Source of the DNA: Candidatus Latescibacterota bacterium
GTDB lineage: Bacteria; Latescibacterota; UBA2968
Direction of reading: 5' to 3'
Length of the DNA stretch: 64,000 nt
Assembly: GCA_038279365.1 (NCBI GenBank)
Contig: JAYODI010000012.1
Span: 3,859 to 67,858, forward strand
Numbering within the stretch: position 1 is the stretch's first letter; every line of letters begins with the position of its first letter. Shown here in pieces: positions 48,909 to 56,804 of this stretch. Both the position numbers and the translations under genes were made by a program. The notes under the pieces are model-generated. The model had not been told where the DNA came from and searched no databases. It saw only the letters and a list, made by a program, of their open reading frames with translations.

Positions 48909-48977
48909 GTAAACACATCAAAATTCTATTTTACCCACGGGTAGAATAGAATGATTCAATCAAACCAAAGGAAAAAA

Positions 48978-50981
48978 ATGGCAACCGAACCTCTCAACCT
49001 CCCCGACAATTTCAATCCCAAAACCAACCTGCTCTCCAAAACCACCGAAAACGGTACCTTTCACGAATCTCGCGCAGGCGCAAGCCTGGCCGAACGTCTC
49101 CTCAAAAACGGCCACCCCAACGACATCACCCAAGCCATCAAAACCCTTGAAGCCACGTTGGCCTGCCAAGAAACCCACCCCAATGACCCCCATTATGGCA
49201 ACTTCTTTTGGATGGCCGAAGACGATGTGGTCGGCGACCTCAACGCCGTCGAATTTTGCCTCGAAAGCCTCATCCCCATGATGATTGGTCAGGGCAATCT
49301 TTTACCTCAAGACATGCAAAAACGCGTTCTCAACGCCATCCGTTTAGGTCTCGACGAAATACGACGCATCAATGTACGCGTCACCTACTCCAATATCACC
49401 GCCCTCGACATTCTCAACTCTTGCTTGGGTGGCGAACTTCTCAACGACGCAGCCATCTCTCAAAGAGGTTATGACAAACTCGAAGAATGGATGGCCTACA
49501 CCGACCTTAATGGCACCCCCCGGGAATTCAACAGTCCCACCTACATCGGCGTCTTTATCAACGCTTTTAAACGTCTCTCCGATCATGTACAACACAAACC
49601 CACCCAAGTGCGTGCCCGAACCATGGCGGCACGCCTCGCCTTTAGCGTGGGCCTCCACATTCACAAATCAACCGGTCGCTGGTCTGGCCCGCACAGCCGT
49701 GCCTATCACCCATCTGTCGTTTGTGAAGCCCCTGCCGAAATCAACCGTGTCAACCAATGGTTCGAATCGGGTGCCCTTCCCAAATGGGCCAATGACGTCC
49801 TCAACTACCCCACCCCCATCGACGTTATCGAAACCGCCGACCTCGAACTCAAAAGCTGTCTCACCACCCACCAAAGCAATTCATTTTGTTTGGGCACAGC
49901 CACACGCCAATATGGCGGTCAATCCGATGTTCTTATGGCCCATTACACCCGCGAAGGCACAGACCGCCCCGGCGTGCTCTACACCCGCTACCTCCTCAAC
50001 GACAAATGGTTGGGCGATTTCTACCATGCCACCGACCGCACCAAGTCGCGCAACCTCGTAGACGAAGGTCAATTTAGAGGCGTACAACACGGCTCTCGTG
50101 CCATTGGCCTTTACACCCCCCAAAGTGTGGGCAACATCACCAGTGCCAAAGCGTGCTTCATCTTCACCCAACGCGAACACATTGACGAAATTTGGGTCGG
50201 CAATCAACAAATCACAGCCCTACCCGCCGACGTGCCCGAAAACCAAACCATCACCATCGCTTCAGGCACCACGCTCTTTGCCATTTGCCCTCTTTCACGC
50301 ACAGATATTGGGCGCAATGCCCCCATTCGTCTTGTAGACAAACAAGGCGACCTCGTGCTTGAAACCTATAACTACCTCGGTTCAGAAAAATCCTTTTGGG
50401 AAATGCGCCCAGATGGCCCATTCTTTCAAGGCCACCCCAAAAACGGCATCTACATCGAAATGGCCGAACGCTCTGCTTATCCAAACGCGCAAACCTTTGG
50501 GCAAACAGTTTCCTCTGGTTCCCTAAGTGAAGAAACCGATGCACCCACGGTTTACGATGGCAAAACCCCACGCAACTGGCGCGTAGAATACGAACGTGAC
50601 AACCAAAAAATTGGCATCGAAATAGACCTGATGCAATGGGATCTGAAACGCCGTTGGACGCATGAGGGCGATCTCGACTTTCCCATGCTCACAGCACCCA
50701 TTGTTCATCAATCACGCAGTGGAAAAATAGAAATTGACCATGCATCACTTACATTTGGCAATGGCGCAGGGTGGCTTTACAAAAGCCCAAATCAAGACCT
50801 ATGCATTGCAGGGTATCACGGCCCCAACCCAGGGCCTATGACACTTACCCTACCCAATGGCCAAGTCGCAATCGAATCCCTCACATGTGGCACCATCATT
50901 TGGCAAAATGGCAAAGTAACCATTGATGCACTCAATCTAAAAAACGCGCCTCAAGTAACAGGTGGCCAACTCATTTCTTAA
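48978..50981 (+). CDS. Hypothetical protein with lyase/heparinase-like architecture
   Basis: YSNI, EFNSPTY and GPHSRAY motifs; helical N-half and beta-rich C-half. Confidence 0.55.
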   Translation: MATEPLNLPDNFNPKTNLLSKTTENGTFHESRAGASLAERLLKNGHPNDITQAIKTLEATLACQETHPNDPHYGNFFWMAEDDVVGDLNAVEFCLESLIPMMIGQGNLLPQDMQKRVLNAIRLGLDEIRRINVRVTYSNITALDILNSCLGGELLNDAAISQRGYDKLEEWMAYTDLNGTPREFNSPTYIGVFINAFKRLSDHVQHKPTQVRARTMAARLAFSVGLHIHKSTGRWSGPHSRAYHPSVVCEAPAEINRVNQWFESGALPKWANDVLNYPTPIDVIETADLELKSCLTTHQSNSFCLGTATRQYGGQSDVLMAHYTREGTDRPGVLYTRYLLNDKWLGDFYHATDRTKSRNLVDEGQFRGVQHGSRAIGLYTPQSVGNITSAKACFIFTQREHIDEIWVGNQQITALPADVPENQTITIASGTTLFAICPLSRTDIGRNAPIRLVDKQGDLVLETYNYLGSEKSFWEMRPDGPFFQGHPKNGIYIEMAERSAYPNAQTFGQTVSSGSLSEETDAPTVYDGKTPRNWRVEYERDNQKIGIEIDLMQWDLKRRWTHEGDLDFPMLTAPIVHQSRSGKIEIDHASLTFGNGAGWLYKSPNQDLCIAGYHGPNPGPMTLTLPNGQVAIESLTCGTIIWQNGKVTIDALNLKNAPQVTGGQLIS

Positions 50982-53312: not shown

Positions 53313-55280
53313 TCACACCATCCCAAAAGAAATCTCCAAATCCCATACATCCACACGATTTAACCGCACAGAAATCATCTCACCAGGTGTCACATCCTTG
53401 TTCACTCGCACGTCGGTTTGCCAAGCAAAATCCACCACTTCCACTTTACAATTGTGTGACCACACATCCAAAACCAAAGCATCAAATGTTTGGCCGCGTA
53501 GAGCCATCAAATATTGACACAGCCAATAACGCTCCCGCAAACGCTCCAAACGCCCAATTGTACGCACCCGATCGGCATTGCCTTCACTCAAAGTATTAAG
53601 CATTTCTTCGTTATACGGCGCACCCTGACCAGACAAAAACCCAGACAACTGACGTTGGGTAACCAAGTCTAAATATCGGCGCAAAGGAGAGGTGACCTGA
53701 CAATAGGGCGTCACACCCAATCCTCCGTGGGTGCCAGGCGTCAAAGAAGTCGTTGCAGGGCGCATTTGTTTCAACACACGATACCGATGCAAACGTTCAT
53801 TTTCCGTGGGTTCCATCTCAGAAATGTCAGGTGCTTGTTGCACCCGATAAAAAACGGGGATCTCCTTTTCTGCACACAAGCGCCCCACCTCGGTATTGGT
53901 AAACACCATCAACTCGCTCACCAACAAATCGGCTCGCGAATGACGAGTTTGCACCGACACCGAAATGTCACCACCGTCCAATATTTCAACCCGACGATTG
54001 AGATTGGCCACCGACAAAGCCCCCGCATCAATGCGATTCATTAACAATTGCTCACCCACTTGAAACAACGCATTGAGCATTGGGTATCGAGGATGTGTTG
54101 ACTCATCTAAAATTGCATCTACTGCATCATAACTCAACTTTTCACGACATCGAATCACAGCACGCAAAAACTTTGTATCTCCCAACAATCCATCGCGTCC
54201 TACATTGCAAAGCATACTAATCACCAACCGATCTTTCCCGGGTTGCAAACTGCCCATGCCTTCTGATAATTGCGCAGGCAACATCGCTATTTTTTGATCG
54301 GGAAAATACAAACTTGCAGCCCGTTGAGCTGCATCCACATCCATAGCCGAATCCATCGGGATCAAAGCAGACACATCGGTGATATGTACCCCAATTTGAT
54401 ATGTGCCATCCTCAAAAAATTGTACCGATACGGCATCATCCATATCTTTGGTAGATGCATCATCAATGGTTACCGCATCCACGTGGCGCAAATCTTCTCG
54501 TGAAGAATCGGATAACAACGCGGCAAAGTCAATTGTGTCAACCGCATCAAGTGCCGCTTGCGAACATGGTACTTCAATGGCCTCGCGAATCAAGTCGAGA
54601 AACACATGTTTGTGCCACACACCTTGGGCAACCAATCGCTCAAATGCCCGCTTTGGTGGAACAACCTCCCCAACCATCCGTTCTAACCAACGCATCTCAC
54701 TGCTGTGTTCACCATTAACAACCACATCTTGAACACGACGTAGCCAATCTTCCTCTGGATCTCCTACCCCATTAACAAACCAATCAACAAACTTAAGCCG
54801 TTCCTCTTCACGCGCCTCCTCCTTAACCGCATGGGCCTCACGCAACAAAATCGTTTCGGTATCCAAAGCACGAAAATGAACCCCATCGGCTTCAAAATAA
54901 TCACCGCGCTCCAATGCCATCACAAAGGATGCCAATTGATTTGTATCCACATCATTGCCAAAATACAATTCGGCCAATTCTTCAAAAGCCCAAACACCGT
55001 CTTCTTCATTCACCAGCGTCCACAACTCCTGAAGGTGTACGTTTTGGCTTAATTGTTCTAGATCTTCTTGCCATTTCATCGCATCATTTTTATTCTCTGC
55101 CATTTGCCCAGTAAGCAACAACACATTCTCCAACGGAACATTGACCGACTCCTTAGGCGACACGGCAATACGCACCTTTGCACGCGCCGCCTGCAGGCAA
55201 ACCCCAGTCATTAACCGATTGCGATAGCGAAACAAAACAATCTCATTTTCGCGGGGTAATCGATCCAAAAAACACCTCAT
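53313..55280 (-). CDS. RNase II/R-family (RNB domain) exoribonuclease
   Basis: TIDDASTKDMDDA, HITDV, LVSELMV, TSPLRRYLDL. Start is ATG 55280 or TTG 55268. Confidence 0.92.
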   Translation of the reverse strand: MRCFLDRLPRENEIVLFRYRNRLMTGVCLQAARAKVRIAVSPKESVNVPLENVLLLTGQMAENKNDAMKWQEDLEQLSQNVHLQELWTLVNEEDGVWAFEELAELYFGNDVDTNQLASFVMALERGDYFEADGVHFRALDTETILLREAHAVKEEAREEERLKFVDWFVNGVGDPEEDWLRRVQDVVVNGEHSSEMRWLERMVGEVVPPKRAFERLVAQGVWHKHVFLDLIREAIEVPCSQAALDAVDTIDFAALLSDSSREDLRHVDAVTIDDASTKDMDDAVSVQFFEDGTYQIGVHITDVSALIPMDSAMDVDAAQRAASLYFPDQKIAMLPAQLSEGMGSLQPGKDRLVISMLCNVGRDGLLGDTKFLRAVIRCREKLSYDAVDAILDESTHPRYPMLNALFQVGEQLLMNRIDAGALSVANLNRRVEILDGGDISVSVQTRHSRADLLVSELMVFTNTEVGRLCAEKEIPVFYRVQQAPDISEMEPTENERLHRYRVLKQMRPATTSLTPGTHGGLGVTPYCQVTSPLRRYLDLVTQRQLSGFLSGQGAPYNEEMLNTLSEGNADRVRTIGRLERLRERYWLCQYLMALRGQTFDALVLDVWSHNCKVEVVDFAWQTDVRVNKDVTPGEMISVRLNRVDVWDLEISFGMV

Positions 55281-55318
55281 AAAAAATAAAGGGCAGGCGG
55301 GAGAAGAGCCCGCCTGCC
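55281..55318 (-). terminator. Terminator after the peroxiredoxin gene
   Basis: GGCAGGCGGG / CCCGCCTGCC followed by TTTATTTTTT on the minus strand. Confidence 0.8.
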
Positions 55319-55343
55319 AGACAACCATCATAAAATTATAAGT

Positions 55344-55787
55344 CTATATGGTAGGCAACAACGTTTCAGGGTGCTCCCGAGCAACCACTTCGGCATGCAC
55401 TTGTAACACCTTGCCATCGGGTCCAATAACATAAGAAATCCGTTTGGCAGCACCATCTTCGGCCGTTGCACAAGCACCATAGGCCAAACAAATTTCACGT
55501 TTGGTATCGCACAAAAGTGGATACGTAAAACCCTGCTCTGTTGCAAACTTGGCATTGGCATCCACACCATCTGTGCTCACACCCAAAATTTGTACATTTT
55601 TAGCATTGTATTCTTGGATTCGCGCCTGGAATCCTAAACCTTCAGCCGTTCAACCACCGGTACTGGCGCGTGGATAAAACCACATCACCACTGTTTTGCC
55701 CTGATAATCGCTAAGCGCAACTTCTTTTCCCGTGTGATCCAAAACGGAAAAACCAGGGGCAATATCACCAACCTTCAACATAGGCAT
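55344..55787 (-). CDS. bcp: BCP/PrxQ peroxiredoxin, predicted selenoprotein (147 aa)
   Basis: GAGGAG RBS, MPMLKVGDIAPGF...WFYPRASTGG-TGA-TAEGLGF...ILGVSTD. TGA (55650-55652) is in frame with the ORF-track fragment 55344-55586. Confidence 0.9.
55616..55634 (-). promoter_or_regulatory. Putative bacterial SECIS hairpin
   Basis: GGATTC-CAGGCGC-GAATCC starting 15 nt after the in-frame UGA, with G in the loop. Confidence 0.7.
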
Positions 55788-56017
55788 AAGTGCCTCCTCT
55801 ATGGGATGTTTCATCAACCAAACGAACGGGCATAATATAGGCTCAGAAAGCCAACAATGCCAGCATAATTACAACAGGATCATCGGATGTGTTTACAACT
55901 CATACCAAGCTATTGACACAACCACACACGTCGGGTATTTTTTACCACCTTATTTACAAATGACATCCATCTCATCAAACTTACCCCAATACCACCGCTC
56001 AAAGACTCGGAGTCGTT

Positions 56018-56590
56018 GTGTCATTTTTTGCACGCCACACCTTCAGCCTCATCTCTGCCACTGTTTTTATGCTCTTTGCCAGTCTTGTATTGTGGGCTTA
56101 TAACCACGATCTGGAACGTGACCTTCAACGCCCCATCTCCCCCACATACCCCACCGAACAAAGCAAAGTCATCATCGCTTACCACAATCGGCCAAACATC
56201 CCACACATCAATTATCTGCTTACCAACACGCTCACACAAAACCCGATCAAAAAAATAGCCTATACCCTTTTACTTGCAAGCAAACCACAACACAAAATCC
56301 TCACAGCTTATGCCTATTATGCCCAATTTGGCCAAGTCCAAGGTCTTGCCAAAGCCGCACACAGTTATTTTGGCGTTTCTGTCCAACACCTTTCCATAGG
56401 CGAAACACTCCTCCTGCTTGAGCTCGCACAAAATCCACACTTACCCATTACCACACCCACCACGGCCCTCCAATTGCGCGATCGCCTCTTGTCAGACCTT
56501 TACAACCACCACACCCTCACCCAAACACAATACCAAACCGAATGCCAAAAGGCACTCGCGCTCGCCGCAGACCATAAGCCAATCAATTAA
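56018..56590 (+). CDS. Degenerate peptidoglycan transglycosylase-like membrane protein
   Basis: TLTQN, AAHSYFG, LSIGETLLL resemble GT51 motifs; no EDxxFxxHxG motif. Confidence 0.6.
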   Translation: MSFFARHTFSLISATVFMLFASLVLWAYNHDLERDLQRPISPTYPTEQSKVIIAYHNRPNIPHINYLLTNTLTQNPIKKIAYTLLLASKPQHKILTAYAYYAQFGQVQGLAKAAHSYFGVSVQHLSIGETLLLLELAQNPHLPITTPTTALQLRDRLLSDLYNHHTLTQTQYQTECQKALALAADHKPIN

Positions 56591-56804
56591 AAATATTGCG
56601 CCTACAACTGGTCATACCAACATACCCAACCTTACCAAATCCCTCACCAAACCCAATCATTTCCATCTTGTCATCCGTTGTAAACCTTTAAATGCCCAAA
56701 TAGACCAAATTGTAACACAATCTTCACTTGCCCTTAATGTAAGCGAAACAAATTTTGTTTACTTTTGTGCGTCCAAAACGACACACCTTACGAAAGGAAG
56801 GGAT

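Follow-up and report, generated by a model that had tools for sequence, protein, structure and literature searches.

Peroxiredoxins in which selenocysteine (Sec) replaces the peroxidatic cysteine are already an established selenoprotein family. Such proteins (Prx, motif TxxU, COG1225, Bcp) are listed among the known prokaryotic selenoproteins in Table 1 of PMC9312934, and a 2026 review relists them with PF00578 and the motif PxxxTxxU (PMC13188914). A survey from 2006 gives 12 Sec-peroxiredoxin genes and five Cys-to-Sec events, as well as four selenoproteins of three families in Acidobacteria (PMC1794560), while PrxU from Eubacterium acidaminophilum is cited in reviews as an experimentally shown Sec-peroxiredoxin. 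Here, we examined a minus-strand gene (55344..55787) in a 64,000-nucleotide (nt) stretch of DNA, hereafter the window, from an uncultured Latescibacterota bacterium (GCA_038279365.1, contig JAYODI010000012.1). It very probably encodes a Sec-containing peroxiredoxin of the BCP/PrxQ subfamily, in which insertion of Sec at an in-frame UGA is predicted from sequence evidence. The gene adds one member to the known family and opens no new category, as catalogues have included Sec-peroxiredoxins since 2006 or earlier. Recoding of this UGA as Sec had been put forward in the original prediction, and it is now supported by the decoding machinery of the host, the pairing of TGA with Cys codons in one column of the alignment, a conserved hairpin, purifying selection and independent contigs.

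The interrupted reading frame and its predicted product

Standard translation (table 11) of this part of the minus strand lists only two fragments, of 80 amino acids (aa; 55344-55586) and 55 aa (55650-55817). When the TGA is read through, one continuous frame of 147 residues results, with this single TGA as codon 46. An 80-aa listed fragment, the extension of its frame through one TGA and a strong ribosome-binding site ahead of the ATG had all been described beforehand, and all are seen in the sequence. The features at the core of the argument, including a hairpin resembling a selenocysteine insertion sequence (SECIS), are:

55344..55787, minus strand: coding sequence of the predicted Sec-peroxiredoxin, 147 residues with UGA read as Sec (ATG at 55787-55785, TAG at 55346-55344)
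55650..55652, minus strand: in-frame UGA (codon 46), which occupies the peroxidatic position in P39-xxx-T43-xx-U46
55635..55649, minus strand: 15-nt spacer between UGA and hairpin, ACGGCUGAAGGUUUA, whose first three codons are synonymously constrained too
55616..55634, minus strand: SECIS-like hairpin, GGAUUC (55634-55629), loop CAGGCGC (55628-55622), GAAUCC (55621-55616)
55793..55797, minus strand: Shine-Dalgarno sequence GGAGG, 5 nt before the ATG, with the same GGAGG/GGAG spacing in orthologs

The readthrough protein matches the Pfam family AhpC-TSA (PF00578) with an E-value of 1.7e-33 and 115.6 bits (cut-off 26), in one stretch that spans the TGA and covers residues 6-128 and profile positions 1-122 of 124. 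Its active-site stretch reads WFYPRASTGG-U-TAEGLGF, which contains the sequence YPRASTGG-U-TAEG just as it had been reported, and holds the peroxidatic motif P39-R-A-S-T43-G-G-U46. Pro39, Thr43 and Arg116 are invariant across 60 aligned homologs, the last of these also across a 17-sequence alignment. Structurally, an AlphaFold2 model built on a 60-sequence alignment (predicted local distance difference test score, pLDDT, 95.8) puts residue 46 in the opening turn of helix alpha2 (residues 44-55). The top folds that Foldseek returned for this model, M. tuberculosis BcpB (template modelling score, TM, 0.89), X. campestris PrxQ, Xylella PrxQ and Sulfolobus Bcp1/Bcp4, have TM scores of 0.83-0.91. 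By sequence, the best PDB matches are BCP/PrxQ entries of X. campestris (E 3.9e-20), whose Arg aligns with Arg116.

The Cys-type BCP/PrxQ structures of X. campestris (5iiz, 3gkk), M. tuberculosis (BcpB, 5epf) and Xylella (3ixr) share the fold (TM 0.84-0.91) and, in the alignment, the same Pro, Thr and Arg active-site residues, but they carry Cys rather than Sec. Further, the alpha3 Cys of X. campestris BCP, which we take to be the resolving Cys84 (partly from the PDB titles 'C48S mutant' and 'C84S mutant'), aligns with Ala82 here. Five residues after the peroxidatic residue (CP+5), where the usual CxxxxC pair had been said to be missing, Leu51 is indeed found, and the 25 orthologs described below carry L, V, I, A, Q or N at this position. 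Both canonical BCP resolving positions (CP+5 and alpha3) are therefore without Cys. A resolving Cys is not universal in the BCP subfamily, and active 1-Cys BCPs are known. The three distal Cys that had been noted are Cys93, Cys100 and Cys106; the first two are invariant in 25/25 orthologs and Cys106 is present in 24/25, and Cys100 lies opposite a Cys of X. campestris BCP in the alignment. The active-site loop is ASTGG here as against ADTPG in the wider family. Among NCBIfam models, the closest is that of the BCP-type thiol peroxidase (NF006960), to which the protein scores 101.5 bits, below the cut-off of 140; it is a relative of the E. coli-type Bcp, not an equivalog.

Compared with the catalogued Prx family (representative WP_011365628.1), the window protein has in common the AhpC/TSA domain, Sec in PxxxTxxU, the existence of Cys homologs and a Sec-decoding bacterial host. 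It differs, as far as the catalogue description of that family allows comparison, in that the Latescibacterota form lacks both resolving Cys and has the loop ASTGG. PrxU (NF040737) likewise carries Sec in place of the peroxidatic Cys but is a different peroxiredoxin subfamily: the window protein falls well short of the cut-off (52.3 of 270 bits), and its 147 residues compare with 233 profile positions. Prx-SUH (NF045827), WAxxUGC (NF041054) and TUGYCR (NF053656) are also thioredoxin-fold selenoproteins, but their Sec motifs differ and the scores are 25.3 of 298, 22.5 of 300 and 18 of 100 (score against cut-off), respectively. The name Latescibacterota has no occurrence in the accessible text of PMC13188914. 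In a search of an open-access library, we found no mention of Latescibacterota selenoproteins, which is no proof of their absence; it returned only a paper naming a Latescibacteria bin, without selenoprotein analysis.

Conservation of the UGA and decoding capacity of the host

We followed the UGA through 41 related genomes, the source genome (G000) included, which fall into one family (f1, n = 25) and its sister family (f2, n = 16). All 25 genomes of f1 possess an ortholog with an in-frame TGA in the same column, at 61-86% identity, and each ortholog has exactly one TGA and no other stop or frameshift in its coding frame (one also counts a TAA, sited just before the start codon). The 16 genomes of f2 hold only stop-free paralogs that are 34-36% identical. 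The ratio of nonsynonymous to synonymous substitution rates (dN/dS) downstream of the TGA is 0.07-0.17 in six of eight ortholog pairs, dS being saturated in the other two, and upstream it is 0.05-0.19 in the pairs where it could be estimated. Further decay in relatives, which the original prediction had named as a sign of a pseudogene, is thus not seen; the part beyond the TGA is under purifying selection.

Homologs elsewhere carry Cys opposite the TGA, a pairing that had been proposed as a check. Of 16 database homologs, 14 have Cys in this column (49-61% identity) and two have Trp (W), the latter being closer (72% and 68%). These two, P0002 and P0003, lie on contigs of 673 and 937 nt, and their Trp suggests public gene calls that applied TGA=W to short selenoprotein-encoding contigs. 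The database gene calls P0035 and P0097 (83 and 80 aa) match the C-terminal part only. A scan with one genome per species yielded 595 relatives, and all wider-family counts given here and below refer to the best 80 of these 595 (loci L042-L121). By their titles, the closest are Candidatus Latescibacterota, followed by Acidobacteriota classes and others. Their catalytic codon is TGA in 69 and TGC or TGT in 11.

An organism that recodes UGA should possess the corresponding machinery, and selA, selB, selD and tRNA-Sec were all found in the same assembly, clustered on contig C34 (G000:C34:31069-36924). The assembly is a Candidatus Latescibacterota metagenome-assembled genome (MAG) of 6.03 Mb in 199 contigs, with a completeness of 98.5%. 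selA scores 592 bits, selB 379 bits (cut-off 242) and selD 367 bits, and the tRNA-Sec (anticodon tca) is recognised by ARAGORN and by the Rfam model RF01852 (68 bits versus 47). selD contains one in-frame TGA, in the motif GGU-ASK, and by its sequence the host SelD is itself a selenoprotein. The guanine-plus-cytosine content is 0.473 for the contig of the window (C93), 0.464 for C34 and 0.465 for the genome. Among the related genomes, selA is above its cut-off in 40/41, and in single-chromosome assemblies of relatives selA and the Sec-peroxiredoxin ortholog lie on the same chromosome. The source genome also carries, outside the window, a second Sec-peroxiredoxin paralog (G000:C124:15162-15473, minus strand) with the motif FFPAALTGG-U-TRQ, one in-frame TGA, a signal-peptide-like N-terminus and 30% identity to the window protein; a relative (G007:C36) shares the TGA of this paralog.

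Whether the TGA recurs in independent data could be judged from the contigs of four runs (two of DNA, two metatranscriptomic) that belong to four studies. All cover 55650-55652 without difference, and they do vary elsewhere, with the strain variants D27N (55709) and G12D (55753). Those from the RNA libraries (55365-55812, 55461-55800 and 55332-55482) cover hardly anything beyond the gene. Their extents fit a monocistronic transcript, although such contigs are no proof of transcription.

The hairpin and its counterparts in the wider family

The hairpin begins exactly 15 nt after the UGA, and its GGATTC/GAATCC stem lies where it had been predicted. It is kept in 25/25 orthologs with 100% of cells paired, the sole stem change being A-U to G-U in three sequences. 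Its six codons (+6 to +11) have a synonymous diversity of 0.083 versus 0.416 gene-wide, the lowest of 139 six-codon windows, and codons -1 to +3 around the UGA have a value of 0.12.

The bacterial SECIS (bSECIS) model given in the Fig. 2 legend of PMC13188914 allows loops of 3-9 nt and stems of 4-16 base pairs (bp), sets the UGA-to-loop distance at 16-37 nt and requires G as the first or second loop base, with a minimum free energy (MFE) of at most -7.5 kcal/mol. The stem-loop here agrees with the bSECISearch model in its place within the coding sequence shortly after the UGA, and its stem of 6-7 bp, loop of 4 or 7 nt and UGA-to-loop distance of about 22 nt are all within the limits. The second loop base is G under the MFE fold but not in the reading with a 7-nt loop, and the energy of the hairpin alone falls short of the limit; only a 60-nt fold, at -10.1 kcal/mol, passes. 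The earlier description as SECIS-like accordingly stands for spacing, stem and loop size, while the energy is borderline. An Rfam scan of 55250-55900 (E at most 10) found no SECIS family and returned only a sub-threshold L20-leader (22 bits versus 58.7), a null result that is uninformative for bacterial SECIS elements. A lower SECIS stem, in which ACGGCU would pair with downstream codons, was considered and is not claimed, as the MFE folds vary among orthologs; RNAalifold retained only a 4-bp helix around the UGA and the upper hairpin.

In the wider family, a hairpin is present at 69/69 Sec loci and at 2/11 Cys loci, in two designs:

Type A hairpin (the design of the window gene): 26/69 Sec loci
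Type B hairpin (9-bp stem, GUU loop): 42/69 Sec loci
Both hairpin types: 1/69 Sec loci

The type B hairpin extends from nt +12 to +32 past the TGA and occurs at 43/80 loci; it is the design used by most Acidobacteriota Sec orthologs. Its 5′ arm contains the CP+5 codon, and 93% of its cells pair. It has one covarying pair (GC 34, CG 7, GU 1), in which seven sequences combine a UGC-to-UCC change at the CP+5 codon with CGC to CGG on the opposite arm; the score of this covariation was reached by 0/500 shuffles. In Acidobacteriota orthologs the resolving-Cys codon UGC is itself folded into the 9-bp SECIS stem, whereas in Latescibacterota orthologs the same GGRUUC hexamer forms the 5′ arm of another hairpin. 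Among Cys loci, 9/11 have neither type and 2/11 (L067 and L068) have type A. These two, on Blastocatellia MAG contigs (L067:1629-1690, L068:1629-1690), are Cys forms (TGC) with the hairpin GGGUUC-N7-GAAUCC in genomes that have selA, and two readings suggest themselves: Sec may recently have been converted to Cys, leaving a fossil SECIS behind, or a Cys paralog may be poised to convert.

The Sec forms comprise 26 with and 43 without the CP+5 Cys, and Cys100 is confined to 17 Latescibacterota-type loci, all of them without the CP+5 Cys. What is mildly new is that this clade has lost both canonical resolving-Cys positions and that its SECIS design is unlike that of its Acidobacteriota relatives. 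We tentatively raise the possibility, which we consider rather unlikely at present, that the Latescibacterota clade is a distinct '1-Sec' PrxQ lineage, in which Cys100 (helix alpha4) and the family-wide Cys93 would provide a new selenenylsulfide partner and whose emergence would coincide with a rebuilt SECIS. Such a partner position may be unused by any characterised BCP. If this were true, active-site chemistry and recoding signal would have co-evolved inside one orthologous family.

Alternative explanations, significance and genomic surroundings

Several observations weigh against a Sec-decoded peroxiredoxin. In the single sequence, a 71-nt fold has a z-score of 0.34, with 119/200 shuffles folding at least as well, and the hairpin alone reaches -5.5 to -7.0 kcal/mol, weaker than the published -7.5. 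The 7-nt loop opens with C and A, and an early G requires the additional C-G pair of the MFE fold. The Latescibacterota hairpin has no compensatory double changes (0/6 pairs); its helix is almost invariant, and therefore no covariation is to be found. The support for the putative hairpin as a structure rests on its conservation rather than on covariation or single-sequence energy. As to the host, the MAG has an estimated contamination of 7.4%, and the sel genes (C34) are on another contig than the window (C93). The RNA-library contigs could reflect DNA carry-over, the score to the BCP equivalog model is below its cut-off, and the recycling of the enzyme set out below is conjecture.

Some of these features would suit a nonsense pseudogene, whose catalytic TGC or TGT has mutated to TGA and whose hairpin arose by chance: its energy is unremarkable in this sequence alone, and gene callers split the gene, as P0035 and P0097 illustrate. 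A decaying gene is, however, difficult to reconcile with a TGA column kept in every f1 genome without other lesions, with the low dN/dS downstream, with synonymously frozen hairpin codons and with a TGA in 69 of the best 80 relatives, which include other phyla, and we regard this explanation as effectively refuted. The UGA could also be decoded, but not as Sec, through stop readthrough or because TGA means Trp or Gly in the code of this lineage; W does appear in the TGA column of P0002 and P0003, and some pipelines have translated with TGA=W. Against this, prfB is present (514 bits versus a cut-off of 370) and TGA closes 664/2999 open frames of at least 300 codons, so that TGA is a normal stop in this host. 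The corresponding residue of the homologs is the catalytic Cys, which neither Trp nor Gly could replace, and a dedicated selA/selB/selD/tRNA-Sec set and a conserved hairpin at SECIS distance are present, which together make such decoding very improbable. That the true codon is TGC or TGT and the TGA an error of sequencing or assembly might be suspected in a MAG of 199 contigs, but the contigs of four runs agree at the codon yet show variants at 55709 and 55753, and the same TGA is found in 24 other genomes, leaving a vanishingly small chance of such an error.

The alternative that deserves more attention concerns function, namely that the product is a selenoprotein but no peroxidase, acting instead as a thiol-disulfide or selenenylsulfide oxidoreductase or a redox sensor through Sec46 with Cys93, Cys100 or Cys106. 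The empty resolving positions, the conservation of the three distal Cys, the loop ASTGG in place of ADTPG and the score under the BCP cut-off would all be in line with it, and catalogue descriptions class several selenoproteins of the AhpC/TSA fold as oxidoreductases of unknown function. Yet the full peroxidatic signature (Pro39, Thr43, U46 and Arg116) is intact, the model gives U46 the location it has in peroxiredoxins, in the opening turn of alpha2, the protein contains no UxxC or CxxU redox motif, and BCPs without a resolving Cys are known to be active. On balance, we consider a function other than peroxidase improbable.

For the favoured Sec-containing peroxiredoxin, family chemistry and the sequence together suggest a plausible sequence of events. 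SelB-GTP-Sec-tRNA(Sec) would bind the hairpin and deliver Sec at UGA-46. The selenolate, sited where helix alpha2 begins and surrounded by Pro39, Thr43 and Arg116, would then attack the peroxide and form a selenenic acid. Because both canonical resolving positions are empty, the oxidised enzyme would most likely follow a 1-Cys-type cycle, in which thioredoxin, glutaredoxin or a similar thiol reductant regenerates it directly. Alternatively, recycling might pass through a selenenylsulfide with Cys93, Cys100 or Cys106.

These findings have practical implications for annotation. Standard gene callers split or truncate the gene, so that public entries are 80-83 aa long and contain the C-terminal part only, some with W at the Sec column. 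As a result, the antioxidant capacity and selenium dependence of Latescibacterota and Acidobacteriota are under-counted in estuarine, marsh and soil samples. With this gene, a poorly studied candidate phylum joins the known Sec users. The family as a whole offers a natural series for studying how a SECIS is remodelled inside a coding sequence and what benefit Sec brings to a peroxiredoxin: the CP+5 Cys is present in some Sec forms and absent from others, the SECIS comes in two designs, and some Cys forms retain the hairpin.

Two further signals flank the gene:

55834..55863, minus strand: promoter-like CTGGCA-18-TATATT, a consensus match only and weak evidence
55282..55318, minus strand: intrinsic-terminator-like hairpin with 9 G-C among its 10 pairs and a T-run behind it, 26 nt past the stop codon

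Near the gene, two promoter-like sites were found versus 1.1 expected. Two RNA-library contigs stop at 55812 and 55800, downstream of the promoter-like site, and one ends at 55332, near the terminator-like hairpin. With its own ribosome-binding site and terminator-like hairpin, the peroxiredoxin gene looks monocistronic. Its neighbours, which encode an RNB exoribonuclease, a sigma-70 factor, GNAT and GH31 proteins and others, are not tied to redox metabolism, and we therefore make no argument from an operon.

Among these neighbours, the 672-aa ORF of the RNB-domain exoribonuclease (minus strand) has its listed ATG at 55331, upstream of the terminator hairpin of the peroxiredoxin gene; its true start is probably further downstream. 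A 676-aa ORF on the plus strand (48951-50981), which matches no Pfam family at an E-value of at most 1e-5, lies directly upstream of the GH31 glycoside hydrolase gene. Lastly, the region 56100-56800 has a strongly negative GC skew (-0.4 to -0.6; the plus strand is G-poor). It holds the N-terminal extension of the sigma-70 ORF, of about 130 aa and domain-free, and a plus-strand ORF of 190 aa that matches the C-terminal half only of a Transglycosylase domain (profile positions 90-175 of 178).

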